DNA of 64,000 nucleotides, taken from Candidatus Omnitrophota bacterium. GTDB lineage: Bacteria > Omnitrophota > Gorgyraeia > Gygaellales > Profunditerraquicolaceae. A program made the translations under genes and the position numbers. The stretch's first letter is position 1, and each line of letters opens with the position of its first letter. The DNA is taken from contig JAQTQJ010000009.1 of NCBI GenBank assembly GCA_028712255.1, positions 13,977 through 77,976 on the forward strand, read 5' to 3'. This document shows, one piece after another, positions 8,082 through 62,979 of the stretch. The notes beneath the pieces were generated by a model that saw nothing but the letters and a program-made list of their open reading frames with translations, made no database searches and was not told where the DNA came from.

Positions 8082-8717
8082 ATGATTGGATTGATTGGTA
8101 AAAAAATTGGAATGACTCAAGTGTTTACTGCAGATAATAGCCAGGTTGGCGTTACTGCTATCGAGGCTGGGCCTTGTCCGATACTTATGGTTATGGGCAA
8201 GTTTATTCAGCTGGGTTTTGATTTAGCAAGGGAAAAGAGTTTGAAAAAACCGCAGTTAGGCCTTTATAAAAAATTAAATATAACTCCTCGTAAAGTAATC
8301 AAAGATATTACAAAAGAGGCTAATGTTGAATATAAGGTTGGTAATGAACTTAGGGTTGATCTTTTTGCGGAAGGTGATTTTGTAGATGTAAGCGGAATTT
8401 CTATTGGAAAAAGTTTTCAGGGAGGTATGAAACGTTGGCATTGGAAGGGTGGGCCCAGGACGCATGGTTCTACTTCACATCGTCGAGTCGGTTCTATTGG
8501 TTCTAGCACCACTCCTGGCCGTGTATTTCGCGGGCATCATATGCCAGGGCATATGGGTGCACAAAATGTAACGGTACAGAACTTAAAAGTAATCAAAGTA
8601 GATTTAGCTAATAACCTTCTGTTGGTTGAAGGAGGGGTTCCCGGTCACAAGAACGGGTATTTAGTGGTTACTAAAGCCTTGAAGAAAAAGGCAAAGAAAG
8701 TAGCGGTAAAGAAATAA
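8082..8717 (+). CDS. rplC: 50S ribosomal protein L3
   Basis: Starts [15 protein letters not shown]. Conserved order. Confidence 0.93.
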
Positions 8718-8718
8718 T

Positions 8719-9363
8719 ATGTTTAAATTATCTGTATATAATATTCAAGGGAAAGAAGTTGAAACGATTGAGCTGGACGCGAAGATCTTTGATGGCAGCC
8801 AAAATACCGATAGTTTGCATCAAGCCATTGAGGGTTATAGGGCTAATCAAAGAAAAGGATTAGCTTCTACTAAAACCCGCGGCGAAGTTTCCGGTGGCGG
8901 TAAGAAACCCTGGAAACAAAAAGGTACAGGGCGTGCCCGCGTAGGTTCTACTCGTTCTCCGCTTTGGAGGCATGGAGGCGTAGTCTTTGGGCCACATCCG
9001 CGTGATTTTTCTTATGATGTTCCTCAGAAAATCAAGGCCCTGGCTTTAAAAACCAGTTTGAATCTTAAGTTAAAAGAAAACAACTTTATGGTGCTGGATG
9101 ATTTTAAAATCGAATTGCCCAAGACTAAAGAAGCAGTTAATGTTTTAAGTAATTTAAAATTATTCTCAGCAAAAGAAAAAAAGATAAAAAAGGTTTTATT
9201 TCTAACGCATAAGCTAGACAGCAAATTAAAGACAGCTTTGAAGAATATTAATTTTTTGACTGTAGATTTGGCTTCTGATTGCCATGCTTATGAAGTAATG
9301 AACAACCAAAAACTGCTTATTACTAAAGAGGGATTGGGGCTTCTTACAAAGAGGTTAAAATAA
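8719..9363 (+). CDS. rplD: 50S ribosomal protein L4
   Basis: 214 aa L4-like. Conserved order. Confidence 0.9.
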   Translation: MFKLSVYNIQGKEVETIELDAKIFDGSQNTDSLHQAIEGYRANQRKGLASTKTRGEVSGGGKKPWKQKGTGRARVGSTRSPLWRHGGVVFGPHPRDFSYDVPQKIKALALKTSLNLKLKENNFMVLDDFKIELPKTKEAVNVLSNLKLFSAKEKKIKKVLFLTHKLDSKLKTALKNINFLTVDLASDCHAYEVMNNQKLLITKEGLGLLTKRLK

Positions 9364-9641
9364 TGGCTCGGTTGGATTCTATAATTAAAGCGCTTTTACA
9401 AACTGAAAAATCTAGTACTTATTTGCCTGGTGGTAAATATCTTTTTCTGGTAGATAATGCTGCCAACAAGATTGAAATTAAAAAAGCAGTTGAAGTGCTT
9501 TATAAAGTCAAAGTAAAGGATGTTAATACATTTGTTTCAATTGGGAAGTTAAAAAGAGTAAGGCATCAGTTAGGGCGTACATCTGATACCAAGAAGGCTG
9601 TGGTTACTTTGGCGGCCGGACAAAAAATAGAGGTAGCATAA
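9363..9641 (+). CDS. rplW: 50S ribosomal protein L23
   Basis: 92 aa L23-like. Conserved order. Confidence 0.9.
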
Positions 9642-9642
9642 G

Positions 9643-10479
9643 ATGGGTCTTATTAAATTCAAGCCGACTACACCAAGCCGCAGGCATATGAGCGGGCCGG
9701 ATTTTGCCGAGATCACCAAGACAAAACCGGAGCGTTCATTGTTGGTCCCCTTAAAAAAAACGGGGGGAAGAAATTCTTATGGGCGTATTACTACTAGGCA
9801 TATTGGCGGCGGACATAAGCGTATGTTGCGTTTAATTGATTTTAAACGCGATAACCTCGACCAACCGGCAAAGGTTCTAGCTATTGAATATGATCCGAAT
9901 CGATCAGCCAGGATTTCTTTAGTTGAATATCCTGATAAACAAAAGAGATATATTATTGCCCCGCTTGGCCTTAATGTAGGGGATATTGTTGTTGCCAGCG
10001 ACCAGAAAGACATTGAAATTAAACCTGGTAATTGCCTTCTTTTACGCAATATTCCTTCCGGAACACTGATTCATAATATTGAATTATCTAAGGGCAAGGG
10101 TGCACAAATTGTCCGTGGTGCAGGAACTAGCGCTCAGATTATGGCAAAAGAGTCTGATATGGCCCATGTTCGATTGCCAAGCGGTGAAGTAAGGTTAGTA
10201 AGCCTAGATTGTCATGCTACTATCGGGCAAATTGGTAATATTGACCACGATGCCATTATTTTAGGAAAAGCAGGTAAAAGCCGCTGGTTAGGAATCAAAC
10301 CTTCAGTAAGAGGAGTAGTAATGAATCCATTTGATCATCCTCACGGTGGAGGAGAAGGCAAGAGTGGGCAAGGTAATCCGCATCCTGTTACTCCTTGGGG
10401 TAAGCCTACCAAAGGTTATCGCACTAGGAACCGAAATAAATATTCTAATAAATTTATCGTTAAAAGAAGGAAGCCATAA
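9643..10479 (+). CDS. rplB: 50S ribosomal protein L2
   Basis: 278 aa. Conserved L2 C-terminus (GGGEGK...). Confidence 0.95.
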
Positions 10480-10481
10480 TT

Positions 10482-10769
10482 ATGCCGCGCTCACTTAAAA
10501 AAGGTCCATACGTTGAGGAAAGTTTATTAAAAAAGATTCAAAAGCAGACTAAGGCTGGATTGCGTCAGGCAATTAAAACCTGGAGCAGAAGGTCAACAGT
10601 GTTGCCGGATTTCGTAGGTTTAACGTTTGCGGTTTATGATGGCAAGAAGCATGTTCCGGTTTTTATAACCGAGAATATGGTAGGGCATAAACTAGGAGAG
10701 TTTGCTCCGTCGAGGATATTCAGGAAACATGGCGGTATAAAAGCAAAGAAGGCTCTGGAGAAAACATAA
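10482..10769 (+). CDS. rpsS: 30S ribosomal protein S19
   Basis: 95 aa S19-like. Conserved order. Confidence 0.93.
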
Positions 10770-10770
10770 G

Positions 10771-11109
10771 ATGATTTCAAAAGCTGAAGGAAAATTTTTG
10801 AGAATTTCTCCCAGTAAGGTACGTATAGTTGCTGATCTTATTCGTGGCAAAGATGCAATTGTCGCACAAGGGATTCTTTTGCATTTAAATAAAAGGTCAA
10901 AAGAATATTTAATAAAGATATTGAAATCTGCCATTGCTAATGCTAAAATAAAAGGTTTCGTAGCTGATAAATTATATGTTTCTAAGATTGTTTGTAATCC
11001 TGGCCCGATGTGGAAGAGGTTTAAGGCAGCAGCTTTCGGCCGGGCTGCCTCAATAGTTAAGCGTACTGTTCATATAAAAATTGAATTAGATTTAAAACCG
11101 GGGGAGTAA
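10771..11109 (+). CDS. rplV: 50S ribosomal protein L22
   Basis: 112 aa L22-like. Conserved order. Confidence 0.9.
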   Translation: MISKAEGKFLRISPSKVRIVADLIRGKDAIVAQGILLHLNKRSKEYLIKILKSAIANAKIKGFVADKLYVSKIVCNPGPMWKRFKAAAFGRAASIVKRTVHIKIELDLKPGE

Positions 11110-11112
11110 TTT

Positions 11113-11820
11113 ATGGGACATAAGGTAAGTCCTTTAGTGTTAAGGATTGGTTTTATAAGACAGTGGCATTCGCGTTGGTTTGCTAAAGCCAAAGATTTCC
11201 CGCTGTTTATCCAGCAGGATCAAAAAATAAGAAAATTTATTAAAAATAAGTTTAAGCAGGCAGCGATATCTAAAATTGTTATTGAAAGGCTTGCAGAAAA
11301 AATTAAAGTTCGTATTTTTTCAGCCCGCCCTGGAATTATTATCGGCCGGCATGGTTCGGATATTGAGCGCTTACGCGCGGATCTAAATAGTTTGGTCAAG
11401 AATGAATTGTCTATTGATATACAGGAAATTAATAATCCTGCCTGGGATGCGCAATTAGTTGCGGAGAATATTGCTTTGCAACAAGAAAAGAGGATTGCAT
11501 TTCGTAGGGCAGTAAAAAGAGCTATGGAGCAGTCAATTCAATCCGGAGTAAAAGGTATTAGGGTTAGTTGTTCTGGCCGGCTCAATGGCGCAGAAATGGG
11601 CCGCCGTGAAACTTATAAAATTGGCAAGGTTCCTTTACAAACTTTACGCGCGGATATTGATTATGGTTTTGCAGAAGCCCTTACAACATACGGTTTAATC
11701 GGAGTTAAGGTTTGGATTTATAAAGGGGATATTCTGGGAAAAGAATTTGTCAAAGAAGATGTTAAAGTGGTTCAACAGGGACGGTCTCAGGAAGCATTTC
11801 GGCAGCAGTCTCAACGTTAA
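11113..11820 (+). CDS. rpsC: 30S ribosomal protein S3
   Basis: 235 aa with KH-like N-terminus. Conserved order. Confidence 0.93.
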   Translation: MGHKVSPLVLRIGFIRQWHSRWFAKAKDFPLFIQQDQKIRKFIKNKFKQAAISKIVIERLAEKIKVRIFSARPGIIIGRHGSDIERLRADLNSLVKNELSIDIQEINNPAWDAQLVAENIALQQEKRIAFRRAVKRAMEQSIQSGVKGIRVSCSGRLNGAEMGRRETYKIGKVPLQTLRADIDYGFAEALTTYGLIGVKVWIYKGDILGKEFVKEDVKVVQQGRSQEAFRQQSQR

Positions 11821-11829
11821 GAGGTAAAA

Positions 11830-12246
11830 ATGGTTTTAATGCCCAAAAGAGTTAAATATCGTAAATTACAAAAAGGCCAAAGGCGTGGGATAGCTACTTG
11901 TGGCTCGACTTTATCTTTTGGAGAGTTTGGTTTAAAATCTTTAGAAAATGGTTGGATTAAAAATACGCAAATCGAAGCAGTACGCGTGATTTTGGCGCGT
12001 CAGTTGCATAAAGGCGGTAAATTATGGATCAGGATATTTCCGGATAAATCCATAACCAAGAAACCGGCTGAAGTACGTATGGGTAAAGGTAAAGGAGATC
12101 TTGATCATTGGGTGGCTGTAGTAAAAAGAGGCCGTATACTTTTTGAATTGGGCGGAATTCCTCAGGAGTATGCTAAGTCATGTTTTCGTCTGGCAGCCTA
12201 TAAGATACCGCTACGCACAAAATTTGTAACCAGGATGCATAAATAA
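11830..12246 (+). CDS. rplP: 50S ribosomal protein L16
   Basis: 138 aa L16-like. Conserved order. Confidence 0.93.
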
Positions 12247-12247
12247 T

Positions 12248-12439
12248 ATGAAACTACTTGAATTAAAAGCTTTAACAGGAACTGAATTGTTAGAAAAAGA
12301 GAAGACGCTGTATGCTGAATTGTCTAAATTAAATTTACAGCGTTATACAGGCCGAGTAGAGAAGCCGCATAAGTTTGCACTGATAAAAAAAGATATTGCG
12401 CGCATCAGGACAATCTTAAACCAGAAGAAAGAAAGATAA
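12248..12439 (+). CDS. rpmC: 50S ribosomal protein L29
   Basis: 63 aa L29-like. Conserved order. Confidence 0.88.
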   Translation: MKLLELKALTGTELLEKEKTLYAELSKLNLQRYTGRVEKPHKFALIKKDIARIRTILNQKKER

Positions 12440-12440
12440 G

Positions 12441-12722
12441 ATGGGAAAGAAAAAAGAATTTATAGGTTTAGTAGTAAGCGATAAAATGCAAAAAACAGTC
12501 GTAGTTAAGACTATGCATTTGACCAGGCATGCGAAATATTCCAAAACAATTAAACTTCATAATAAATTCAAAGCTCATGATGAAAAAGGCACGGCTAGGC
12601 TGGGAGATACAGTAAGTATAGCAGAAACGCGTCCTTTATCCAAAGATAAGCATTTTATAGTCAAAGCAGTACTTAAAAAAGCGGCAGATACGCATCTTGT
12701 ATCTGCTGAGGAGATAGTTTAA
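12441..12722 (+). CDS. rpsQ: 30S ribosomal protein S17
   Basis: 93 aa S17-like. Conserved order. Confidence 0.9.
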   Translation: MGKKKEFIGLVVSDKMQKTVVVKTMHLTRHAKYSKTIKLHNKFKAHDEKGTARLGDTVSIAETRPLSKDKHFIVKAVLKKAADTHLVSAEEIV

Positions 12723-13090
12723 TGCTTCAATTACGTAGTATTTTCGATGTTGCAGATAATACCGGGGCCCGTAAGGCTTCTTTGATTTGTGTTTTAAAAA
12801 AAATGGGTAGTTTTAATGCAGATATCGGAGATGTCATAAAGGTTAATATTAAAGAATCTATCCCGGGAGCTGCAGTGAAAAAGGGGGAGATGGCCAGGGC
12901 GGTAATCGTGCGCACCAGGCGTGATATAAGACGGGCGGATGGTTCAATATTACGTTTTGACCGCAATGCCATAGTAATTATTGATGATAAAGATAATCCG
13001 CGAGGAACACGCGTTTTTGGGCCGGTTGCCCGCGAATTAAGGGATAAAAATTTTAATAAAATAATTTCTTTAGCGCCAGAGGTAATTTAA
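12722..13090 (+). CDS. rplN: 50S ribosomal protein L14
   Basis: 122 aa. Starts MLQLRSIFDVADNTGARK. Confidence 0.95.
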   Translation: MLQLRSIFDVADNTGARKASLICVLKKMGSFNADIGDVIKVNIKESIPGAAVKKGEMARAVIVRTRRDIRRADGSILRFDRNAIVIIDDKDNPRGTRVFGPVARELRDKNFNKIISLAPEVI

Positions 13091-13401
13091 TGCAGAAAAT
13101 TAGGAAGAATGATATTGTTCAGATAATTAAAGGTAAAGATAAAGGAAAGCAGGGCAAAGTAATTAATGTTATCGAGGAAGGCAAGCGCGCCATAGTTGAG
13201 GGTTTAAACCTTGCTAAGAAACATAAGCGTCAGAGCCGACAGGATCAAAAAGGCGGGATAATTTCGATAGAGATGCCTTTGTCTGTATCTAATCTTATGG
13301 TTTTTTGTAAGCATTGTTCAAAGCCTTCGCGTGTAGGAGCTTTGACTTTAAAAGACGGAACCAAATCCAGATTTTGTAAAGCATGTAAAGAGGCATTATA
13401 A
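13090..13401 (+). CDS. rplX: 50S ribosomal protein L24 (Cys4 zinc-ribbon variant)
   Basis: KOW N-terminus (GKDKGKQGKV). C-terminus carries CxxC-x19-CxxC (CKHC...CKAC). Confidence 0.9.
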   Translation: MQKIRKNDIVQIIKGKDKGKQGKVINVIEEGKRAIVEGLNLAKKHKRQSRQDQKGGIISIEMPLSVSNLMVFCKHCSKPSRVGALTLKDGTKSRFCKACKEAL

Positions 13402-13402
13402 G

Positions 13403-13960
13403 ATGATACCTAGACTACTAGAAAAATATCGTAATGAAATTGTTCCGAAATTAATGGAAGATTTTAAATTAAAAAATAAAATGGCAGTTCCTGCAGTTGA
13501 TAAGATTGTGGTGAATATGGGTATTGGTGAAGGTACTCAGGATGTTAAATTATTAGAGAAATCAGTCGAAGAGCTGGGAAATATAACTGGGCAGAAACCG
13601 ATTATCCGACGCGCAAAAAAAGCAATTGCAAATTTTAAGGTTAGAGAGGGCCAAGCGGTTGGCGCCAAAGTAACTTTAAGGCGTGTGATGATGTATGAGT
13701 TTATGGATCGGCTGCTTAATATCGCTCTTCCTCGTATTCGTGATTTTCAAGGGGTTTCCCGGGATTCCTTTGATAAAGGGTTTAATTATACCTTGGGTTT
13801 AAGTGAGCAGATTATATTTCCTGAGATCGAATATGATAAAATTACCCGTACCCAAGGAATGGATATTACTTTTGTAATCAAGAACGCTAAAAATATCGAA
13901 CAAGCAAGGAGCCTATTGAAATATTTCGGTATGCCTTTTAAGGCTAAGGAAGAAAAATAA
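13403..13960 (+). CDS. rplE: 50S ribosomal protein L5
   Basis: 185 aa L5-like. Conserved order. Confidence 0.93.
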   Translation: MIPRLLEKYRNEIVPKLMEDFKLKNKMAVPAVDKIVVNMGIGEGTQDVKLLEKSVEELGNITGQKPIIRRAKKAIANFKVREGQAVGAKVTLRRVMMYEFMDRLLNIALPRIRDFQGVSRDSFDKGFNYTLGLSEQIIFPEIEYDKITRTQGMDITFVIKNAKNIEQARSLLKYFGMPFKAKEEK

Positions 13961-35341: not shown

Positions 35342-35394
35342 AAGATAAAGTTTATTGACAAATTAGAATGGAGTGTTAAAGTAATTAAGACAAT

Positions 35395-35600
35395 TTAGTG
35401 ATACAGGTTAAGGGAAATCCGTTTGGCCACAAGGCCATGGTTTGGCACAAAAAAGCCAAAGCCAGAAATCGGATGCGGTCCCGCCGCTGTAAAAGTTGAC
35501 GAAAGCTGCTAGCAGATAAAAGCCACTGTACTATGGAAATTAGTATGGGAAGGCGCAGCAAGTAGGATAAGACTTAAGCCAGAAGACCTGCCTGTATAAA
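35395..35600 (+). promoter_or_regulatory. cobalamin (AdoCbl) riboswitch
   Basis: GGGAAATCCG region and CCGCCGCTGTAAAAG. B12 box AGCCAGAAGACCTGCC at 35578-35593. A possible hairpin/U-rich expression platform lies further downstream at ~35643-35690. Precedes btuFCD-cobCUTS. Confidence 0.6.
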
Positions 35601-35689
35601 GAAAGTAATGCCTCGTGGAAGGGCCATAGTATTATCAGGGTGAAGCCCGATCCAGGTACCAGGAGTACCAGGTTCGGGTATTTTATTTT

Positions 35690-54572: not shown

Positions 54573-55858
54573 CTCAATTAGATTTTGCCAAGAAAAATAT
54601 CATTACCCCGCTTATGCGCAAAGTTGCCTCTTTTGAAGGGGTAAGTTCTGCTAAGCTTATACGCCTTATGGCTAAAGGCAAAGTAGTCATACCGCTAAAT
54701 ATAAATCATAAGATAAAAAAACCTTGTGCTGTGGGTAGCACTCTTTCTACTAAGGTTAATGCCAATATTGGTACCTCTACCGATGAATCCCGCATTTCTG
54801 AAGAAATTAAAAAATTAAAAATTGCCATAAAACATGGCGCAGATGCTGTTATGGATCTAAGCGTGGGAGGGGATCTTACGAAGGTAAGGAAAGAGGTTCT
54901 AAAGTATTCTAGTATCCCAGTTGGCACTGTTCCGGTTTACGAAATAACAGTCAGGGCCCAGGAAAAGAATAAAAATTTTCTTCAATTCGATGCCGATGAT
55001 CTTTTAGCTGTGTTGGATGAACAAGCTAAACAAGGAGTCGATTTTTTTACCATACATAGCGGAGTAACGCAAAGAAACTTAAAAATTTTGGAGAAACAGA
55101 AAAGGTTAATGGGGGTAGTTTCGCGTGGTGGTGCAATTATTGCCAGTTGGATAAAATATCACAAGAAAGAGAATCCTTTTTTCACGCATTTTGAACAGAT
55201 TTTGGATATTGCTTATAGATATGATGTGACTTTAAGTTTGGGAGATGGGTTAAGGCCAGGTTCCATTTTAGATGCTACGGATAAGGCTCAGATAGCAGAG
55301 TTAAAAATCTTAGGGGAATTGGCAAAGCGTGCTTGGAATAGAGGTGTTCAGGTAATGATTGAAGGCCCGGGACATGTGCCTCTGGACCAAATAGAAAAAA
55401 ATATTGCTTTAGAGAAAAAATACTGTAATGGAGCGCCTTTTTATGTATTAGGGCCTTTGGTTACTGATGTTGCCCCGGGATATGATCATATTACATCTGC
55501 AATCGGAGGAGCGTTGGCGGCAAGCTATGGAGCAGATTTCCTTTGTTACGTAACTCCTGCTGAGCATTTGCGCCATCCCTCAGAAAGCGATGTGCGTGAA
55601 GGTGTAGTTGCCAGCCGCATCGCTGCTCATGCCGGCGATTTGATTAAGCGAAAAAAAATTGCCATAGAATGGGATAGAAATATATCGATTGCCCGAAGAG
55701 CGCGCGACTGGAAAAAACAAATTGAGTTATCCATTAATCCTGAAAAGGCTCGTGAGTATCGATTAAGCAGCAAACCTAAGCTTTCTAAGGTGTGTACGAT
55801 GTGTGGGAAGTATTGTTCTATCAAATTAATGGATGATTGCGTATCTACCGATAGATAG
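54569..55858 (+). CDS. thiC: phosphomethylpyrimidine synthase
   Basis: 429 aa ThiC core with C-terminal CTMCGKYC cluster. Confidence 0.9.
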   Translation: MTQLDFAKKNIITPLMRKVASFEGVSSAKLIRLMAKGKVVIPLNINHKIKKPCAVGSTLSTKVNANIGTSTDESRISEEIKKLKIAIKHGADAVMDLSVGGDLTKVRKEVLKYSSIPVGTVPVYEITVRAQEKNKNFLQFDADDLLAVLDEQAKQGVDFFTIHSGVTQRNLKILEKQKRLMGVVSRGGAIIASWIKYHKKENPFFTHFEQILDIAYRYDVTLSLGDGLRPGSILDATDKAQIAELKILGELAKRAWNRGVQVMIEGPGHVPLDQIEKNIALEKKYCNGAPFYVLGPLVTDVAPGYDHITSAIGGALAASYGADFLCYVTPAEHLRHPSESDVREGVVASRIAAHAGDLIKRKKIAIEWDRNISIARRARDWKKQIELSINPEKAREYRLSSKPKLSKVCTMCGKYCSIKLMDDCVSTDR

Positions 55859-55862
55859 ATGT

Positions 55863-55933
55863 GCGGGTGTAATTCAGTGGTAGAATGGCAGCTTCCCAAG
55901 CTGCATATGGCGGTTCGATTCCGCTCACCCGCT
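55863..55933 (+). tRNA. tRNA-Gly (anticodon CCC)
   Basis: Cloverleaf: acceptor GCGGGTG/CACCCGC, anticodon stem GCAGC/GCTGC with loop TTCCCAA, T-arm GGTTCGATTCC. CCA is not encoded. Confidence 0.85.
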
Positions 55934-55960
55934 TATAGATTGGAGATTCAGTAGATTAAT

Positions 55961-56620
55961 ATGAGAAACATTATTTTTTTATTGATAATTTTATTTGTTG
56001 CCGGATGTTCAACGGTACCTCCTTATACGGGGCCGGTTATACCTGTCTCTACTCAAGCGGTTGCAGGGTTCCACCATCGTGTAGAAGCAGGCCAGACTCT
56101 TTGGAGGATATCCAGGCTTTATAATGTAGATATAGATGAAATCTTACAGGCAAATCATATCCCAGAAGAGGCAAAGATCGAGATAGGCCAATTACTTTTA
56201 ATTCCCAATCGTAATAAGCCTCAAAATTTTGCTGTGAAATCCTCCGGGGATGATTTTATCTGGCCGCTTAAGGGCAGAGTAATTTCGGGTTTTGGCCTTA
56301 ATTACCGTAATTTGATGAATAAAGGTATTAATATTCAGGCCTCAGTGGGATCTGGAGTTTTTGCTACTCGTTCCGGGAGGGTAGTTTTCTATGCTGCTAA
56401 TTTCGGTAATTTTGGTAAAACGATAATTATTGACCATGGGGATGGGCTGCGCAGTGTTTATTCTAGAGTTTCACAAGTTTATGTGCAATTAGGTGAGATG
56501 GTGCAAAGTGGCTCTATGATCGGCAGCGTTGGAACCAGCACAAGAGATAAGAACAGTTATTTACATTTTGAAATACGCAAAGGAGCTCTTCCTCAGAATC
56601 CGTTATTCTATTTACCATGA
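55961..56620 (+). CDS. LysM-domain M23 family peptidase lipoprotein
   Basis: Lipobox LLIILFVAGC, LysM (GQTLWRISRLYNVDIDEI), M23 motifs (IDHGDG...HFE). Confidence 0.85.
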   Translation: MRNIIFLLIILFVAGCSTVPPYTGPVIPVSTQAVAGFHHRVEAGQTLWRISRLYNVDIDEILQANHIPEEAKIEIGQLLLIPNRNKPQNFAVKSSGDDFIWPLKGRVISGFGLNYRNLMNKGINIQASVGSGVFATRSGRVVFYAANFGNFGKTIIIDHGDGLRSVYSRVSQVYVQLGEMVQSGSMIGSVGTSTRDKNSYLHFEIRKGALPQNPLFYLP

Positions 56621-58212
56621 TAAAGAATAGATTTTTTGACCGAAAAAATTATATTCAGATATTAGAGAAACGCGTCAGTAGCCTAAAGGAAGGGTATCGG
56701 CAGAATATTGCTATTATTGGTGAAGAGAATGTTGGCAAAACCAGCATTGTTACTAAATTCTTAGCCAACTTTTATGACCCCAGGATTATTACAGTTTTTC
56801 TTGAAGTGCGTCCTGAATCTCTGGATGGTTTTGTCAGGAGATTTATCGGTGCGCTACTTTATAATTTTCTTTTAAATAGTTCCCTGCCTTTAAAAGAAGA
56901 TTTGGATTATCTGATATTAAAATCTGCTAAGTATATACCTAATACTGTAGAAAAGATAAATTTTATACTTAAAGAATTAGCGCGAAAGAAAAAGTTAAAT
57001 ATTATTAATGAACTTTTTAGCCTTCCTGAATCAATTAATCAGGAAACGGGTAAATTTACGGTTTTGTTCCTGGATGAATTCCATAATCTTGAGAATATCG
57101 GAGTTAAAAATTTATATCGGGATTGGAGCAAGCTGCTTATTCTGCAGAAAAACACGCTTTATTGTATTACAAGTTCAATGATTTTTAAAGCCAGGGCCGT
57201 TCTTTCTAAACAACTTTCTTTGTTATTTGGGAATTTTGAAATTGTAGCTATCGAACCTTTTGATATACATACAAGTTCACGTTATCTTGATCAGTACCTG
57301 CCATTTCTGAAATTAGATCCGGGTTTAAAAAATTTTATCATTAATTTTACCGGAGGCTATCCACTGTATCTTGAGTTAATAGCGGATGCATTATCAAAGC
57401 GGGATATCCCTACTGACCTACCGGATGTTTTAGAAGATTTATTGTTTAACTCCTCTGGTATCCTTAACATGAGATTCTCTAATTATATCAAACGATTTTC
57501 GGATGGACCGGCCAGTAATGATTATATCTCTATATTTTATTTGATAGCCAGCGGTAGGAACCGCATTAAAGATATTGCCCATATTTTACATAAACAAAAA
57601 AAAGAACTTTCTGTCAGAATAAATCATCTTCTAGAATTAGATGCTATCATAAGATGCGGCGATTTTCTTAAAGTAAGTGACCGCCTATTTGCTTATTGGA
57701 TACGTTTTGTATATCAAGAGAAATTATATTCGTTATCATTTGACGCAAAAAACCAAAAAGAGAAATTCCATGATAGTATTACTGAACTTATCCTTGAGTT
57801 CTCTAAGCAGGCTGCTAATCCATTGATCAACCGCGTTTCTGAGTTATTGCAGTTATTTGAAGATGATCTTATGCAAATTGAACGTAAAAAAATCAGGCTT
57901 AACCATTTTCGTGAAATAAAGCCCCTGATATTTAATCATCGTTATTTAAAAGACGGCCTATTAGGCCGTTCAACTGAGGCTCTTTGGATTATGGCAATTA
58001 AAAATGAAGCGCTTACTGAGGCTGATATTACTGAGTTTGCTAAGGAATGTAAGAGGTATCATCATAAATCTCAGCGTAAAATTATGGTTACATTAAAAGA
58101 GGTTGATCCGAATGCCCGTTTGAGAGCGCTAGAAGAAAAAATTTGGACATGGGATTTAAATAGCTTAAATCAGATTTTGGATTTATTTTCAAAACCCCGC
58201 GTAATCGCATAA
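56617..58212 (+). CDS. Arch_ATPase/DUF234-type AAA+ ATPase (function unknown)
   Basis: N-terminal FFDR motif, Walker A GEENVGKTS, Walker B LFLDEFHN, ~530 aa. Confidence 0.7.
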   Translation: MIKNRFFDRKNYIQILEKRVSSLKEGYRQNIAIIGEENVGKTSIVTKFLANFYDPRIITVFLEVRPESLDGFVRRFIGALLYNFLLNSSLPLKEDLDYLILKSAKYIPNTVEKINFILKELARKKKLNIINELFSLPESINQETGKFTVLFLDEFHNLENIGVKNLYRDWSKLLILQKNTLYCITSSMIFKARAVLSKQLSLLFGNFEIVAIEPFDIHTSSRYLDQYLPFLKLDPGLKNFIINFTGGYPLYLELIADALSKRDIPTDLPDVLEDLLFNSSGILNMRFSNYIKRFSDGPASNDYISIFYLIASGRNRIKDIAHILHKQKKELSVRINHLLELDAIIRCGDFLKVSDRLFAYWIRFVYQEKLYSLSFDAKNQKEKFHDSITELILEFSKQAANPLINRVSELLQLFEDDLMQIERKKIRLNHFREIKPLIFNHRYLKDGLLGRSTEALWIMAIKNEALTEADITEFAKECKRYHHKSQRKIMVTLKEVDPNARLRALEEKIWTWDLNSLNQILDLFSKPRVIA

Positions 58213-58225
58213 AAAGGAGTATTGA

Positions 58226-58726
58226 TTGAGAATAGGAGTAATTTCGGATACGCATATTCCCGATAGGTCTGAACATATTCCTGAAGTGGTATTGAATGCT
58301 TTTAAGCATGTGGATTTGGTCGTTCATGCTGGAGATATAGTGAATTTAGAAGTAATTAATGAATTGAAGTTGGTATGTCCAAAAATAATTGCCGTAGCTG
58401 GAAACATGGATTCTCAGGCGATCGTGAAGAATTTTCCGGTAAAGGATGTCTTTGAAATATCGGGCCTAAAGTTTGGTATTATGCATGGTTATGGATCGCC
58501 AATGAATCTTATTGATGTGCTCAAAGATTCTTTTAAAAAGGAGAAGCCGGATGTTATAATTTTTGGGCATTCACATGAAGCTATGAATAAGTATTTGGAT
58601 GGCGTATTGTTTTTTAATCCCGGTAGCGCTACTGACTGCTTGTCAGCAGAAGCTTCCTATGGGTTAATTGAGATAGAGGATAGCCAACAAGGCCATAAGA
58701 TTAACGCTAAAATAATTAAAATTTGA
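58226..58726 (+). CDS. YfcE/MJ0936-family metallophosphoesterase
   Basis: Contains GVISDTH, GDIV and GNMD motifs. 166 aa. Confidence 0.85.
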   Translation: MRIGVISDTHIPDRSEHIPEVVLNAFKHVDLVVHAGDIVNLEVINELKLVCPKIIAVAGNMDSQAIVKNFPVKDVFEISGLKFGIMHGYGSPMNLIDVLKDSFKKEKPDVIIFGHSHEAMNKYLDGVLFFNPGSATDCLSAEASYGLIEIEDSQQGHKINAKIIKI

Positions 58727-59202
58727 TGGATAGACTTTGGGCACCATGGAGGTTAAATTACTTAAGTGGCAAAAGAAAAGAGAAAGGTTGTATTTTCTGC
58801 CATGCCAAAATTGACAGTACCAACGATTATGTTATTTTTAAGACGAAAAAATCCATATGTTTACTCAATAGGTACCCATATAATAACGGCCACGTTATGA
58901 TTTGTCCTTTGAGGCATATTAATGATATAACAAAATTGACTGAAGAAGAGATTATTGATTTATTTAAATCTCTAAACCGAACAAAGGGCCTTTTGCAGAA
59001 AGTTTTAAAGCCTCAAGGCTATAATATAGGTTTGAACCTTGGGAAAGTTGCAGGGGCTGGGATTACTGGCCATTTGCATTTACATATTGTACCCCGTTGG
59101 TTAGGGGACAAGAATTTTATGCCTTTGATTTCCGGTACAAAGGTAATTTCGGAGTCGCTGGATGAGTTAGTTAAACGCCTAAAAAATGCCATCAACAAGT
59201 AA
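58723..59202 (+). CDS. HIT-family nucleotide hydrolase/transferase
   Basis: Histidine triad HLHLHIV. Confidence 0.85.
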   Translation: MMDRLWAPWRLNYLSGKRKEKGCIFCHAKIDSTNDYVIFKTKKSICLLNRYPYNNGHVMICPLRHINDITKLTEEEIIDLFKSLNRTKGLLQKVLKPQGYNIGLNLGKVAGAGITGHLHLHIVPRWLGDKNFMPLISGTKVISESLDELVKRLKNAINK

Positions 59203-60340
59203 AATCGAAGAATACGAATCAAAATTTTTGGCTCCTTATGCCAGTAAGAGCTGTAATTCACGTGGACGCGCGCATAAAGAGGAAGAGCATTCTTATCGCT
59301 CATGTTATCAACGTGACCGGGATCGTATTATTCACTCCGCTGCTTTTAGGAGGCTTGAGTATAAAACTCAAGTTTTTGTAAACCATGAGGGTGATTATTA
59401 CCGTACTCGTCTGACACATAGTATTGAGGTTTCCCAGATTGCCCGTACCATTGCCTGCGCACTAAGTTTGAACATGGATTTGACAGAAGCTATTGCTCTG
59501 GCTCATGATTTAGGGCATACTCCATTTGGGCACTCCGGAGAAGAAGTGCTTAATGAATTAATGATTAAGTTTGGCGGGTTTAATCATAATCTTCAAGGCT
59601 TAAGAGTAGTTGATTATCTGGAAGAGCGTTACCCGGATTTTCCAGGTTTGAATTTGAGTTGGGAGGTAAGAGAGGGGATAGTTAAACATTCCTCAGTTTT
59701 TGATATCGCGGTTAAAATCAAGGAGTTTTTCCCCAAAAGGATGCCTTCGTTAGAAACTCAGTTGGTCGACGCTGCTGATGAAATAGCCTATGATAATCAT
59801 GATTTAGACGATGGTTTGACTTCAGGTTTGATAAAAGAAAGCGACCTAGAGGATTTGCAGATATGGAAAGAAATAAATCGCCAAATCAACGCCAAATATG
59901 CTAAAATTAACCCCAATTGCCATAAATACCTGATTATTCGAGGCTTGATTGATTTGCAGGTTACTGATTTAATCCGGAATACTCAATCGGAGATCTTGCG
60001 GCTGAAAATTAAGAAATATACCGATCCTTATAAGGTTGATTTTAAGATAGTAGATTTTAGCAAGAAGATTAAGGAATTAAGGAAGCCTTTGCGGCAGTTC
60101 CTGATGCAGAAGCTCTATAAGCATTATCGGGTTATGCGTATGAGTATTAAAGCAAAACGTTTCATCAGGGAATTATTTTGTGAATACCTTTTGCGTCCTG
60201 AGCAGTTGCCTTCTGATGTGCAGCTTAGGATTCCTAAGGAAGGAGTAAGACGGGTAGTTTGTGATTATATTGCCGGAATGACTGATCGGTATGCCTTAGA
60301 TGAATACAAAAAACTATTCAACCCCTACGAAAAAGTATAG
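59186..60340 (+). CDS. dgt: dGTP triphosphohydrolase-like HD-domain protein
   Basis: HD motif (HSIEVSQIAR...AHDLGHTPFGH) and dGTPase-type architecture. Confidence 0.85.
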   Translation: MPSTSKIEEYESKFLAPYASKSCNSRGRAHKEEEHSYRSCYQRDRDRIIHSAAFRRLEYKTQVFVNHEGDYYRTRLTHSIEVSQIARTIACALSLNMDLTEAIALAHDLGHTPFGHSGEEVLNELMIKFGGFNHNLQGLRVVDYLEERYPDFPGLNLSWEVREGIVKHSSVFDIAVKIKEFFPKRMPSLETQLVDAADEIAYDNHDLDDGLTSGLIKESDLEDLQIWKEINRQINAKYAKINPNCHKYLIIRGLIDLQVTDLIRNTQSEILRLKIKKYTDPYKVDFKIVDFSKKIKELRKPLRQFLMQKLYKHYRVMRMSIKAKRFIRELFCEYLLRPEQLPSDVQLRIPKEGVRRVVCDYIAGMTDRYALDEYKKLFNPYEKV

Positions 60341-61373
60341 GTTTTTAATTTCGGCGGTGCATAGTATTTACCGCCTGCTCAACTCCACTTATGGTGTTAA
60401 TGAGTTGATTTGCCGCATGGGCCGGCTGTTTTGTCAATTTTTTAATGCTCAGTATTGCCAGATCATTCTATTAGATTCTAGTAAAAAATATTCTAGTGTT
60501 GGGTGTGTAATTAGTGATAATAAGAAATGTGTAGTTTCTAATAAGAAAAAGATAAATGGCAAAATCGAAGAAAAAATTCTCAGGCATGCATCTGTAATTA
60601 GAAAAGGAAATCTTTTAGGTATTCCGCTTATCTGTGAAGACATGATGGGCCTTATTATTATAAAACGCACTAAAACCAATCAGCCGTTTGATATCTTTGA
60701 CCAGGAGATGCTTATGACTATGGCAGAGCAGGCGGTTGTTGGAATAAAAAACTTACAACTTTACGAGGAGCAGCAGCGGATAGTCTTAGGTAGCATAAAA
60801 TCTTTAGTTACGCTTTTGGATACCCGGGTTTCCAGGGAATATACGCATTCACCGCATTTTAGCAAGCTGGTCTGCGCTTTAGGCTGCGAAGTCCATCTCA
60901 ATGATAAACAACTTGAGAGCCTTAAATATGCAAGCCTTTTGCATGATGCCGGTAAAGCTGGCATACCAGCTGAAATCTTAACTAAGACCACCAAGCTTAC
61001 CGATGAAGAATATGATATTATCAAGAAACATCCAGTTAAGGGTGCGCAGATTTTAAGGCCTTTGCAGGTACTGCGTCCGGCTATTCCGATTATTATGTAT
61101 CATCATGAAAAATATAACGGAACAGGTTATCCATCTCATCTTAAAGGATGCCAGATACCTTTAGGAGCTCGTATCATGTCGGTAGCCGATGCTTTTGAAG
61201 CGATGGTTTATGGCCGGCCGTATCGCCAGAGAATGAATATTACTTCAGCTATCCGGGAAATTAAGAAAAAAAGCGGTATTCAATTTGATCCTAAGATAGT
61301 TGAGGCCTTTTTAAAAGTGATAAAGAAATTTAATAAAAGAATTTATTTGAAACAAGATAACCCTAAATTATAA
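60300..61373 (+). CDS. GAF-like sensor plus HD-GYP phosphohydrolase (paralog of 30998-32164)
   Basis: HHEKYNGTGYP and LLHDAGK. The start is uncertain because it overlaps dgt by 41 nt. Confidence 0.8.
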   Translation: MNTKNYSTPTKKYRFLISAVHSIYRLLNSTYGVNELICRMGRLFCQFFNAQYCQIILLDSSKKYSSVGCVISDNKKCVVSNKKKINGKIEEKILRHASVIRKGNLLGIPLICEDMMGLIIIKRTKTNQPFDIFDQEMLMTMAEQAVVGIKNLQLYEEQQRIVLGSIKSLVTLLDTRVSREYTHSPHFSKLVCALGCEVHLNDKQLESLKYASLLHDAGKAGIPAEILTKTTKLTDEEYDIIKKHPVKGAQILRPLQVLRPAIPIIMYHHEKYNGTGYPSHLKGCQIPLGARIMSVADAFEAMVYGRPYRQRMNITSAIREIKKKSGIQFDPKIVEAFLKVIKKFNKRIYLKQDNPKL

Positions 61374-61380
61374 AAATTTT

Positions 61381-61827
61381 ATGGCTGAAAATCAAGATTC
61401 TCAGCAATCTGAGCTTTTTACTCAGGGCTCTAATACTGGTGGACATTATAAGGGGCATCTTTGGCATAAGTTATTCTTTTTACGTATCCGGGTTTATGAA
61501 AAAATTATTCTTCTGATTATGGGCTTGAGTTTGGCCAGCATTATTTCTTTTTCCATTGGCGTAGAAAGAGGAAAGCGAATTGTTTTTACAGAAACTAATA
61601 ATGCCGGCCCATATACCTATACTATTCAGGTAGCTGCTTTTAAAAACAGGGCGCTTGCTTTGAGCCATGCTCAGTTTTTGACAAAAGAAGTAATGGCTCC
61701 AATGGTTTTTACTAAAGGAAGTTATGTTATTTTGTGCGTAGGCAAATTTTCTAATCAAGAGAGCGCGCAACCTTTGCTGACTCAGCTGCAAAAAACCTAC
61801 GCTGGTTGCCGCATAAGGAGGTTATAA
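61381..61827 (+). CDS. SPOR-domain protein
   Basis: TM segment and C-terminal SPOR-like region (YTIQVAAFKNRALA...). Confidence 0.6.
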   Translation: MAENQDSQQSELFTQGSNTGGHYKGHLWHKLFFLRIRVYEKIILLIMGLSLASIISFSIGVERGKRIVFTETNNAGPYTYTIQVAAFKNRALALSHAQFLTKEVMAPMVFTKGSYVILCVGKFSNQESAQPLLTQLQKTYAGCRIRRL

Positions 61828-61831
61828 AAAC

Positions 61832-62119
61832 ATGTCAATGCATCCGTCATTAACTATTTCGGAAAAGGACAAGAAGGTCCGCTCGGTATTGAAACGTTCT
61901 GAGCGCATAAAACTGATGCAAGAAAAAAGTAAATGGCAGCAAGGTGATTCGGTTTATGGCCTTCCGAAGCTCAAATCTTTAAGGATTAAGATTAAAAAGG
62001 AAAAAGTTGAAAAAGCTGAAAGCGCAACTGCGCAGGCTGCTACACCAGCAGCTGGTGCTACTAAAGAAGCTGCCAAAGCTGCTCCTAAAGCTGCCGCCAA
62101 GGCTCAAGAGAAGAAATAA
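61832..62119 (+). CDS. small basic protein Sbp-like (A/K-rich histone-H1-like tail)
   Basis: N-terminus MHPSLTIS...VRSVLKRSER resembles the Sbp family I recall from PVC-group bacteria. C-terminal AKAAPKAAAKA tail. Confidence 0.45.
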   Translation: MSMHPSLTISEKDKKVRSVLKRSERIKLMQEKSKWQQGDSVYGLPKLKSLRIKIKKEKVEKAESATAQAATPAAGATKEAAKAAPKAAAKAQEKK

Positions 62120-62193
62120 AATTTGATTATAAGCTTTAAGCTGTAAGTTTTAAGCTATAAGCTTAAGGGTTATCGCTTGCAGCTTACTTAAAT
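62120..62193. repeat. TAAGC-hexamer intergenic repeat, copy D
   Basis: ATAAGCTTTAAGCTGTAAGTTTTAAGCTATAAGCTTAAGGGTTATCGCTTGCAGCTTACTTA. Confidence 0.6.
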
Positions 62194-62979
62194 ATGCCGT
62201 TAAACCTTAAATATAGGGTAACTTTTATTATTTTAGTTATTTGTTTTGTATGGTCCATTGTTGCCTTTGGGGCTGATGCTGTTGTTTTCAAAGGACAGGT
62301 CAACACAGAAAATATAAATGTGCGGGTTGATGCAACGGTAAGCTCTGCTATAATTTGTGGTCTTTCTAAATGGGAGTTGGTAGAGGTTATCTCAGAGAGC
62401 TATGATTGGTACAAGATTCGCCTACCAAAAGAAGCGCCTTCATATGTAAAAGAAGACCTGCTTGAGTGTCTTAATTCTGATACGGTAACTAATCCAGGAA
62501 GATGCCTTAGTGCCAAGGTGATTAAAGACAGAATAAATATCCGGTTGGAGCCAAGTGAATCTGCTTGGATATTAGGGAAAGCTAATAAGTCAACCGTAGT
62601 TAGTATTTTGGGTAAAAAAGGAGACTGGTATAAAATTCAACCAATTTATCAAAGTTATGGATGGGTAAATAAAAAATTTATCAGTAAAGAAATAAAATTC
62701 TCTCAAAAGAAAGAACTCCCGGATTTACCTGTTAAAGATATTCAATCTCCAGATTTTTTGGTTGTTGAAGGTATGGTTAGCCCATACGGGGTAGTGTTAT
62801 GGCGCAAAGCCACGCATAAATTAGTTACTCATGAGAGCAAGATTTATTTATTAAAAGGAGACCGTAAAGCCTTAGATAGCCTCAATTATCATAAGGTTAA
62901 AGTTACCGGGAAATTAATCAGCCCGGCTCTAGCTAAGTATCCTATTATTCAGATCGATATTGTCGAGGCGTTGAGTTGA
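62194..62979 (+). CDS. secreted protein with two bacterial SH3 (SH3b) domains
   Basis: Signal peptide and two NIRxxP...DWYKI segments. Confidence 0.65.
   Translation: MPLNLKYRVTFIILVICFVWSIVAFGADAVVFKGQVNTENINVRVDATVSSAIICGLSKWELVEVISESYDWYKIRLPKEAPSYVKEDLLECLNSDTVTNPGRCLSAKVIKDRINIRLEPSESAWILGKANKSTVVSILGKKGDWYKIQPIYQSYGWVNKKFISKEIKFSQKKELPDLPVKDIQSPDFLVVEGMVSPYGVVLWRKATHKLVTHESKIYLLKGDRKALDSLNYHKVKVTGKLISPALAKYPIIQIDIVEALS

Follow-up and report, generated by a model that had tools for sequence, protein, structure and literature searches.

The window analysed here is a 64 kb stretch of Omnitrophota DNA in which all 72 large ORFs lie on the + strand. Five consecutive ORFs had been predicted to form an operon of an orphan ATPase followed by four phosphohydrolases, and the coordinates and strand given for them proved exact, with the catalytic motifs intact. 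The features of the locus are as follows.

55863-55933, + strand: tRNA-Gly(CCC) (ARAGORN; Rfam RF00005, 68.2 bits)
55961-56620, + strand: lipoprotein with LysM and degenerate M23 (LytM) domain, NlpD/DipM/ActS-like
56617-58212, + strand: 531-aa ATPase with AAA+/STAND-like NTPase, winged helix and Mrr-like nuclease fold
56617-57402, + strand: ATPase residues ~1-262, nucleotide-binding domain and helical lid
57502-57732, + strand: ATPase residues ~296-372, winged-helix domain
57853-58209, + strand: ATPase residues ~413-531, restriction-endonuclease-like (Mrr_cat-like) fold
58226-58726, + strand: YfcE-family metallophosphoesterase (TIGR00040, 124.9 bits vs cutoff 56.25; Metallophos_2, 124.1 bits)
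58723-59202, + strand: HIT-family protein, Ap4A-phosphorylase branch (PF01230, 56.9 bits vs 21.5)
59186-60340, + strand: dNTP/dGTP triphosphohydrolase of the short PRK01286 / Thermus Tt-dNTPase type (NF002326, 518.1 vs 390 bits)
60300-61373, + strand: GAF-HD-GYP phosphodiesterase (HD_5, 139.1 bits vs 27)
61381-61827, + strand: membrane-anchored SPOR-domain protein (PF05036 SPOR, 37.9 bits)
61832-62119, + strand: small basic protein, last gene of the tight run (TIGR04137, 64.8 bits vs cutoff 50)

The junctions between the five ORFs measure +13, -4, -17 and -41 nt. Such overlap nevertheless carries little meaning in this window, since all large ORFs share one strand and 44 of the 71 junctions (62%) are no longer than 15 bp, 20 of them being overlaps; the chance of four consecutive tight junctions is about 0.62^4 = 0.15. 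The tight run in fact comprises eight genes, from the degenerate LysM-M23 lipoprotein to the small basic protein: the last 4 bp of the LysM-M23 gene are shared with the ATPase gene, SPOR starts 7 bp after HD-GYP, and the small basic protein gene follows after another 4 bp and is itself followed by a 74-bp gap. Upstream of the run just one gap is sizeable, and in it lies the tRNA gene, 27 nt before the M23 gene. The five-gene boundary is thus arbitrary, the flanking LysM-M23, SPOR and small basic protein genes being equally tight. Scans for promoters and terminators performed no better than on shuffled sequence, and so lent no support to co-transcription.

With its archaeal-type AAA+ module (ATPase_2 family), its winged helix and a nuclease fold of the Mrr-like type (AF2 model, pLDDT 93.5), the ATPase constitutes a minimal STAND/ORC-like switch. 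Its nucleotide-binding module carries the motifs FFDR, GYRQN, Walker A, Walker B DEF, SS and LLFGNFE; the FFDR and Walker motifs that had been read from the sequence are present at residues 6-9 (FFDR), 35-43 (GEENVGKTS) and 150-155 (LFLDEF). The domain assignment draws on a PDB profile alignment to 2fna and on the secondary structure of the model. Profile matches to 2fna and 2qen continue through residue ~370, with MarR/ArsR-type regulators matching at 308-361, and the winged helix shows an H-H-H-E-E pattern in the model and weak HTH Pfam matches in relatives. While the ATP-binding motifs are conserved (among 97 diverse members: N30 97, F207 97, G40 96, K41 96, E154 90, D153 88), the nuclease catalytic positions, D...(E/Q)xK in the Mrr-like domain, are not conserved across the family.

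Compared with ATPase_2 proteins (PF01637 / COG1672; SSO1545, 2fna; PABY2304, 2qen), to which it is ~18% identical, the window ATPase belongs to a bacterial, phylum-restricted family at a fixed locus, in which the PLFGR motif has become LLFGNFE (Asn in 82/97 members), an invariant, family-specific GYRQN precedes the P-loop, and a helical linker and the Mrr-like domain are added at the C-terminus. Its general architecture is that of the known AAA+ and PD-(D/E)XK fusions (DUF234-type, DUF1703/PDDEXK_9-type), in which an ATPase_2-like AAA+ module is followed by a restriction-endonuclease fold (PMC3424549, PMC1913061). The label "DUF234-like" could not be confirmed, however, because the Pfam search returned no DUF234 match; the ATPase_2 score lies just under its gathering threshold (29.6 vs 33.2 bits), and, unlike in DUF234-type fusions, the C-terminal domain resembles Mrr_cat/AF1548. 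In contrast to STAND NTPases such as MalT, IniR and NLR/Avs, the protein is much smaller and has neither a repeat-type sensor (TPR, WD40, LRR) nor a separate effector or output DNA-binding domain.

The family calls for YfcE, HIT, dGTPase and HD-GYP all hold, with TIGR00040, PF01230, NF002326 and HD_5 above their cutoffs. The HIT protein retains an intact HLHLHIV (HxHxHxx) motif and matches Ap4A phosphorylase in the PDB (Rv2613c, 3ano, and 3wo5; E 4e-31), although it stays under the cutoff of the ATP adenylyltransferase equivalog NF052622 (135.8 vs 290 bits). The dGTPase, with HD and HD_assoc domains, matches the Thermus thermophilus dNTP triphosphohydrolase (2dqb) / PRK01286 over its full length (E 7.8e-104) and passes the ordinary NCBIfam equivalog NF002326, whereas the anti-phage models NF041026 (252 vs 400 bits) and NF003701 (217 vs 383) are not reached, so that it is not of the anti-phage Dgt type.

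In the GAF-HD-GYP protein, which had been predicted to carry both domains, HD-GYP is clear (residues 169-333) and its motif HHEKYNGTGYP preserves the HHExxxGxGYP pattern of PmGH (4mcw, E 1e-33) and V-cGAP3 (5z7c, E 3e-32). GAF is more qualified: its Pfam score is under threshold (18.6 vs 22.4 bits), but residues 16-165 (nt 60345-60794) align by hhalign, profile to profile, with the GAF region of distant Pfam-passing orthologues at 99.9% probability. Distant Omnitrophota orthologues also carry an N-terminal region of ~170 aa that the window protein lacks. The upstream LysM-M23 lipoprotein (Peptidase_M23 84.8 bits, LysM 44 bits; lipobox VAGC) reads NKGIN at the position of HxxxD and YLH at that of HxH, and its top NCBIfam matches, DipM, ActS and NlpD, all fall under cutoff.

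Far from being an orphan, the ATPase has 1082 homologues, every named one from Omnitrophota, including an exact match annotated from an Omnitrophota MAG. Full-length sequences fall into 233 clusters (50% identity, E <= 1e-30), with members of ~540 aa. Among the GTDB species loci it was seen as a single copy in each genome, the exception being one MAG that has two nearly identical copies. The ATPase is under strong purifying selection; over 80 species its median identity is 72%, compared with 76% (thiC) and 80% (dGTPase), and ATPase identity follows neighbour identity with a Spearman coefficient of 0.77-0.94. No other gene in the window has so low an overall GC (z -2.4), but the GC3 of the ATPase gene falls inside the usual range (z -1.3), so that nothing points to recent transfer. 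The ATPase-led cluster looks vertically co-inherited at a fixed locus.

Gene order proved to be conserved in relatives, contrary to the lack of linkage that would have refuted the original prediction. The ATPase adjoins HIT, dGTPase and GAF-HD-GYP down to 25-30% ATPase identity, also at loci whose upstream neighbours are wholly different. Seventeen dereplicated lineages (ATPase identity <50%) retain GAF-HD-GYP in 17, dGTPase in 14 and HIT in 13 cases; among 34 distant loci that extend 5 kb or more downstream, HD-GYP is found in 34, HIT in 30, dGTPase in 23, and YfcE and SPOR in one each. HIT is also present in 66/71 close loci; it is missing in several lineages, and the dGTPase in one subgroup. 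YfcE accompanies the ATPase in 76/76 close loci and in the lineages L082 and L167, yet in only 1/17 dereplicated lineages. It is therefore a member in a subset of lineages only, gained in one branch, and, together with the eight-gene run of the window, this speaks against the proposed five-gene operon as a natural unit. SPOR, present in 54/55 close loci, joins the tight run only in the clade of the window; there, the SPOR-to-small-basic-protein gap is 3-9 nt in 52/52 loci, whereas the median distance from the small basic protein gene to the SH3 gene is 166 nt.

An M23 or LysM gene lies upstream in 77/77 close loci and in several deep lineages. The conserved core consists of (LysM-)M23, ATPase, HIT, dNTPase and GAF-HD-GYP, and the ATPase is its founding gene. 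In distant lineages the ATPase heads the unit: its upstream neighbour is either divergent or separated from it by more than 100 bp, and 22/64 distant loci share a conserved sigma70-like promoter 150-210 nt before the ATPase. Among 35 distant loci that extend 5 kb or more upstream, the window's upstream genes are retained in just 3-5. An OmpA-family lipoprotein and murE-murF-mraY directly follow the core in most other lineages.

We therefore favour, with a probability of roughly 55%, the reading that these genes form a housekeeping cluster that is inherited vertically and is characteristic of the candidate phylum Omnitrophota, and not a mobile or defence element. Functional coupling of its genes is plausible. 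Since the ATPase stays linked to HIT, dGTPase and GAF-HD-GYP, the nucleotide or second-messenger theme of the original prediction is still plausible, though not the five-gene unit to which it was attached.

The strongest competitor, which we consider unlikely but well worth weighing, is that unrelated housekeeping genes are held together by compact, co-directional, slow-rearranging genomes, the role of the ATPase being unconnected to the hydrolases. Conserved adjacency may indeed mirror such a backbone, as HD-GYP is linked to OmpA-murE-murF about as persistently as the genes within the cluster are to one another. The single-stranded, tightly packed window points the same way, as do a 16-gene block from pfk to an M50 protease that is colinear in 80 species, an upstream accBC-gmhA-thi block that survives to 28-34% ATPase identity, and the absence of individual members while the ATPase is kept; in L167 the core is broken, both dGTPase and HD-GYP being missing. 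Against this, HIT, dGTPase and HD-GYP are retained downstream of the ATPase across many independent changes of upstream neighbour, and the cluster outlasts the break by which the mur genes were parted from the window's clade. The overlaps of stop and start codons are likewise conserved (the 41-nt dGTPase/HD-GYP overlap persists, at a median of -38 nt by HSPs, in 59/61 loci; the M23/ATPase junction is tight in 67/77), and three to four nucleotide phosphohydrolase superfamilies in one run form a coherent theme.

A cell-cycle or replication checkpoint appears improbable. Here an ORC/Cdc6-like ATPase at the head of a division and cell-wall cluster would bind DNA and tie replication or septation to the levels of dNTPs, Ap4A and c-di-GMP, which would suit its position, either between an NlpD-like M23 gene and SPOR or ahead of OmpA-murE-murF-mraY, and the continuation of the cluster in L167, where ATPase-YfcE-HIT run on into guaA and dnaE, dGTPase and HD-GYP being absent. 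The argument, however, is one of association only; the ATPase is matched by STAND NLRs at least as well as by ORC, and neither origin-like features nor a DnaA context came to light. In STAND proteins, moreover, the winged helix is often structural rather than DNA-binding.

The suggested antiviral, dNTP-depleting module, with a STAND-like ATPase that bears a nuclease-fold domain sensing infection and the dGTPase and other hydrolases depleting nucleotides, is very improbable: the Mrr-like domain and PADLOC's generic dGTPase (341.7 bits) and ThsC-type HIT (40.5 bits) models speak for it, but PADLOC matched no multi-gene system and only the generic single-gene dGTPase, the ATPase lacks sensor repeats and conserved nuclease positions, the dGTPase passes the ordinary equivalog but neither of the anti-phage models, genes for biosynthesis and the cell envelope surround the cluster, and the locus is fixed, highly conserved and vertically inherited across the phylum.

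Within a vertically inherited housekeeping cluster, the ATPase could act as an ATP-dependent switch or scaffold, possibly DNA-binding and probably no nuclease, co-expressed with three enzymes that would clear signalling or precursor nucleotides. Going by homology, from which their putative substrates are assigned, GAF-HD-GYP may remove c-di-GMP or a related cyclic dinucleotide, HIT (phosphorylase branch) Ap4A-type dinucleoside polyphosphates, and the Tt-dNTPase-type enzyme dNTPs. If these hydrolases are co-expressed with the ATPase, nucleotide status might be managed jointly with the growth of the envelope and with division; the envelope context consists of M23/LysM upstream in deep branches and OmpA-murE-murF-mraY downstream.

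A gene cluster around the ATPase is conserved and vertically inherited in Omnitrophota, and its persistent core consists of the ATPase, the HIT protein, the dNTPase (dGTPase family) and the GAF-HD-GYP protein. This core is usually flanked by an NlpD-like M23 gene upstream and by cell-wall genes downstream. In the window, the relevant features are the following, with the best curated model and its cutoff where one applies:

55961-56620, + strand: LysM-M23 lipoprotein, metal-binding motifs degenerate (NKGIN for HxxxD, YLH for HxH)
56617-58212, + strand: ATPase, 531 aa
58226-58726, + strand: YfcE metallophosphoesterase (TIGR00040, 124.9 bits, cutoff 56.25)
58723-59202, + strand: HIT protein (PF01230, 56.9 bits, cutoff 21.5)
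59186-60340, + strand: dGTPase (NF002326, PRK01286.1-1, 518.1 bits, cutoff 390)
60300-61373, + strand: GAF-HD-GYP protein (HD_5, PF13487, 139.1 bits, cutoff 27.2)
61832-62119, + strand: small basic protein, sbp (TIGR04137, 'Chlam_Ver_rRNA', 64.8 bits, cutoff 50)

The five ORFs from the ATPase to HD-GYP lie exactly where the original prediction had placed them, all on the + strand, with junctions of +13, -4, -17 and -41 nt. Because the + strand carries all 72 large ORFs of the 64 kb window, with 44 of the 71 junctions between them at most 15 bp long and 20 overlapping, this arrangement alone is not beyond chance in this genome; in a genome whose genes are all co-directional and tightly packed, same-strand overlaps do not count as evidence for an operon. 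With a positive GC skew in each of its 1-kb bins, the window (1-64000) represents a part of one replichore with extreme co-directionality. Over the same range, all ORFs of 110 aa or longer that resemble genuine genes lie on the + strand. The genes had also been taken as a unit of five, but that boundary is arbitrary: the M23 gene runs 4 bp into the ATPase gene, a SPOR-domain gene starts 7 bp past HD-GYP, and sbp follows 4 bp past the SPOR gene. Larger gaps occur only before M23, where a tRNA-Gly is located, and after sbp. Promoter and terminator scans gave the same result as shuffled sequence, and the repeats in 55800-62200 were short chance matches only. Judging by its motifs, the M23 lipoprotein resembles amidase activators of the NlpD/EnvC/DipM type more than an active peptidase.

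Among close relatives (80 species-level genomes, ATPase identity 57-87%), the genes sit in a colinear block of 16, in the order pfk, gmhA, rfaE2, thiE-N, thiE, thiC, M23, ATPase, YfcE, HIT, dGTPase, HD-GYP, SPOR, sbp, SH3 and M50 protease. Losses within this block include HIT (5 of 71 loci) and thiE (12 of 61 loci). The junctions from M23 to sbp are tight throughout, sbp always starting 3-9 nt past the SPOR gene in the window's clade, and the only consistently open junctions are thiC to M23 (median 182 nt) and sbp to SH3 (median 166 nt). Conserved order at this depth carries nothing specific to the five genes, and the informative test is the one on distant relatives. One MAG, JAZDLL01, holds two full copies of the block on separate contigs (loci L008 and L010, ATPase identity 81% and 80%), for which strain mixing in the bin is more likely than a true duplication.

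Distant relatives were sampled as 82 further loci found by a diverse profile, plus several by exact look-up; for some of the most divergent members the contigs ended too soon to show what follows the ATPase. In 34 loci the ATPase identity was below 50% and the sequence extended 5 kb or more downstream, and there the genes past the ATPase included HD-GYP in 34, HIT in 30 and dGTPase in 23, with YfcE and SPOR in one each. Conserved linkage in relatives had been proposed as a check on the cluster, and it was found: after dereplication at 60% identity, HD-GYP was present in 17/17 lineages, dGTPase in 14/17 and HIT in 13/17, with all three in 10. YfcE, which had been counted in the five-gene operon, was present in one of these 17 and belongs to one branch only. 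The identity of the ATPase correlated with that of its neighbours (Spearman 0.77-0.94), which fits vertical co-inheritance. On the upstream side, any of the window's upstream genes were kept in only 3-5 of 35 distant loci with at least 5 kb of upstream sequence; the genes found there are diverse and often on the opposite strand (Trypsin_2, Exo_endo_phos, giant ORFs, a response regulator joined to CofD). In several deep branches, members at 25% identity among them, the gene directly 5' of the ATPase is again an M23 or LysM gene.

The conserved core can also break. A locus from an Omnitrophota MAG (L167, 7286-17044) carries LysM-M23, ATPase, YfcE and HIT and then guaA, dnaE and a PilZ-T2SSE ATPase, with dGTPase and HD-GYP missing; at another (L081), RadC ends the cluster after dGTPase, and one subgroup of the distant lineages is without dGTPase. 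Beyond HD-GYP, most distant lineages have a small membrane ORF, a coiled-coil lipoprotein of the OmpA family, a protein of ~150 aa and then murE-murF-mraY. This OmpA-murE-murF-mraY arrangement is seen, for instance, at 8449-13807 of the distant locus L163, with equivalents in L084-L141, L165 and L166. The usual head of the division and cell-wall cluster, mraZ-rsmH-ftsL-ftsI, was not seen in those distant mur regions, and the 64 kb window has no mur genes.

The reading we favour is a coupled housekeeping module, to which we assign a probability of roughly 0.55. Of the nucleotide or second-messenger module suggested by the original prediction, the linkage of ATPase, HIT, dGTPase and HD-GYP has been kept in relatives; conserved adjacency alone cannot prove coupling, since the link from HD-GYP to murE persists as well as the links inside the core. 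That same persistence argues for the main alternative, in which the genes stay together through synteny inertia only, an explanation that is possible but that we tend to doubt. Pointers to a shared transcription unit are all indirect, namely the conserved overlaps, the short gaps and a conserved promoter in one distant lineage. This sigma70-like promoter, CTTGCTTTC-N13/14-(C/T)GTAAGATA, lies 150-210 nt 5' of the ATPase start in 22 of 64 distant loci, which form one large lineage (L083-L108 and L163; for example 7802-7832 of L107), and is followed by a leader of ~170 nt. In this lineage the ATPase is predicted to head its own transcription unit.

A riboswitch or structured leader 5' of the ATPase was considered and rejected, leaving the conserved promoter alone. 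When the window and five further loci were scanned at gathering thresholds, the only Rfam matches were tRNAs and an unrelated cobalamin riboswitch; the conserved leader of L107 had no match even at permissive Rfam settings, and the leader structure was not significant (RNAalifold -4.95 kcal/mol; single-sequence fold z +1.23). The cobalamin riboswitch (RF00174, window 35388-35609, + strand, 86 bits, gathering score 31.5) precedes ORFs starting at 35690. In a further locus, L103 (8010-10190), ATPase and HIT share one frame of 726 aa, created by a 1-nt deletion relative to L101, L104, L106 and L107, in which the two ORFs overlap by ~70 nt. Either a genuine fusion or a mistake in the assembly may lie behind this frame, and because it depends on a 1-nt deletion on a single contig we set it aside as Rosetta-stone evidence.

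The ATPase itself had been described as an orphan, but it has 1082 homologues and belongs to a large family so far found in Omnitrophota only, the source of every named homologue. Its exact match is annotated from a Candidatus Omnitrophota MAG, and the best 120 of the 1082 match over the full length with 66-88% identity. When the representatives of 50%-identity clusters were searched exhaustively, 607 clusters reached E <=1e-3 and 233 reached E <=1e-30; almost all have ~540 aa and align end to end, down to 25% identity. A 3.8-kb contig with M23-ATPase-YfcE-HIT-dGTPase, at 59% ATPase identity (L076, JBAZLD010000045.1), is assigned to a Candidatus Babeliales MAG and is probably mis-binned. The motifs quoted earlier are all present, with FFDR at residues 6-9, Walker A GEENVGKTS and Walker B LFLDEF. 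Pfam ATPase_2 (PF01637) covers profile positions 1-223 of 225 with 29.6 bits (E 7.5e-7), below its gathering threshold of 33.2; many close homologues carry a precomputed PF01637 match, and the protein has both the fold of solved ATPase_2 members (NBD, lid, winged helix) and their motifs (Walker A GxxxxGK[ST], Walker B hhhhDE). Since the Walker motifs are nearly invariant in 97 diverse members (G35 95, G40 96, K41 96, D153 88, E154 90), ATP binding has probably been retained. The invariants specific to the family include a GYRQN before the P-loop, and where the archaeal AAA+ relatives have PLFGR, the Omnitrophota family has LLFGNFE. The 'DUF234-like' label was not borne out, as DUF234 (PF03008) was unmatched at E <=0.01 with the full protein and at E <=1 with residues 401-531.

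Comparison of the ATPase with known folds (score)
Archaeal AAA+ PABY2304 (2qen), ~315 residues: 23.8
Archaeal AAA+ SSO1545 (2fna), ~315 residues: 22.0
Plant NLR resistosomes: ~16
Orc1/Cdc6: 13-15
TnsC: ~12.8
Avs: ~11-13
Mrr-like AF1548 (1y88), C-terminal domain only: 12.0

A PDB-sequence profile search agreed with this comparison (2fna, E 1e-9), and MarR/ArsR-type winged helices matched residues 308-361. The C-terminal domain has a PD-(D/E)XK fold, and an AAA+ module followed by such a domain is a known type of architecture (PMC3424549, PMC1913061). In the window ATPase, the nuclease matches are faint and confined to Mrr_cat (PF04471, 13.5 bits, gathering threshold 21) and 'inactive REase'; one homologue, P0309, passes the Mrr_cat threshold with 23.1 bits. 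With the catalytic positions placed on predicted strands by our own inference, D...(E/Q)xK is not conserved (n=97: position 446 D 17; 460 A 29, Q 18; 462 K 39), so the nuclease fold probably serves binding or assembly, not cleavage.

As part of a coupled housekeeping module, the ATPase may act as an ATP-dependent switch or scaffold of the STAND/ORC type, and would be co-expressed with enzymes removing c-di-GMP-type messengers, Ap4A-type dinucleotides and dNTPs. A cell-cycle checkpoint seems to us unlikely. In its full form, which we regard as similarly improbable, the ATPase would be a switch of the ORC/STAND type, specific to Omnitrophota, that senses nucleotides and binds nucleic acid through its winged helix and an inactivated nuclease domain. 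With GAF-HD-GYP, an Ap4A-phosphorylase-type HIT protein and the dNTPase it would form a checkpoint that ties peptidoglycan synthesis or division to the levels of second messengers and dNTPs. If true, this would explain why, across a phylum whose members are ultra-small and possibly host-dependent, the cluster has an NlpD-like activator on one side and mur/SPOR genes on the other. Each hydrolase is an ordinary representative of a known family, and the ATPase, restricted to this phylum, adds a new member to an architectural type already known; on present evidence this is not a new kind of system, nor does the finding yet open a long-standing question. Within a searchable library, the literature on Omnitrophota with dGTPase or c-di-GMP, or on DUF234, yielded no paper on this cluster, and that on the solved archaeal ATPases yielded only papers on IniR and on PD-(D/E)XK proteins. 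In conservation the ATPase surpasses several biosynthetic enzymes, and it is fixed beside nucleotide-signal hydrolases and cell-wall genes; confined so far to a widespread, uncultured phylum, it is a reasonable target for cell biology, and the cluster a good candidate for such study.

Curated models bore out all four hydrolase families, and their signatures are present in translation: DTH, GD, GNMD and GHSH in YfcE, HLHLHIV in HIT, an HD motif in the dGTPase (HD 61.5 bits, HD_assoc 91.4 bits) and HHEKYNGTGYP, of the form HHExxxGxGYP, in HD-GYP. The solved structures nearest to the HIT protein are Ap4A phosphorylases (E 4e-31), and it scores 135.8 bits against the ATP adenylyltransferase equivalog NF052622 (cutoff 290). 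GAF in the window HD-GYP protein reaches 18.6 bits against a Pfam threshold of 22.4; hhalign aligns residues 16-165 to the GAF region of distant orthologues (probability 99.9%, E 1e-34), which scores 38-45 bits in Pfam. These distant orthologues are 500-530 aa long (L165 3819-5366, L163 6864-8456, L119 11275-12861) and have an extra conserved N-terminal region of ~170 aa, without a Pfam match, that is absent from the 357-aa window protein.

The antiviral dNTP-depletion module once suggested is very improbable, given a fixed, vertically inherited and highly conserved locus (median ATPase identity 72%, against 76% for thiC, in close relatives), biosynthetic and envelope neighbours, a base composition without sign of recent transfer, and a dGTPase that passes the ordinary equivalog NF002326 (518.1 against 390 bits), falls below the anti-phage cutoffs (NF041026, 252 against 400 bits; NF003701, 217.4 against 383 bits) and has a Thermus dNTPase as its nearest solved relative (2dqb, E 7.8e-104). 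Finding a dGTPase beside a STAND-like ATPase does not amount to evidence of defence. The PADLOC check matched no multi-gene system of PADLOC-DB v2, only a generic single-gene dGTPase model (341.7 bits), and its other matches were weak and isolated (ThsC HIT 40.5 bits, PDC-S10 28.5 bits, ATPase E ~2e-3). Recent horizontal transfer of the ATPase was likewise rejected: its overall GC is the lowest of the window (z -2.4), but its GC3 (z -1.3) is not out of range, and in all relatives the locus is fixed.
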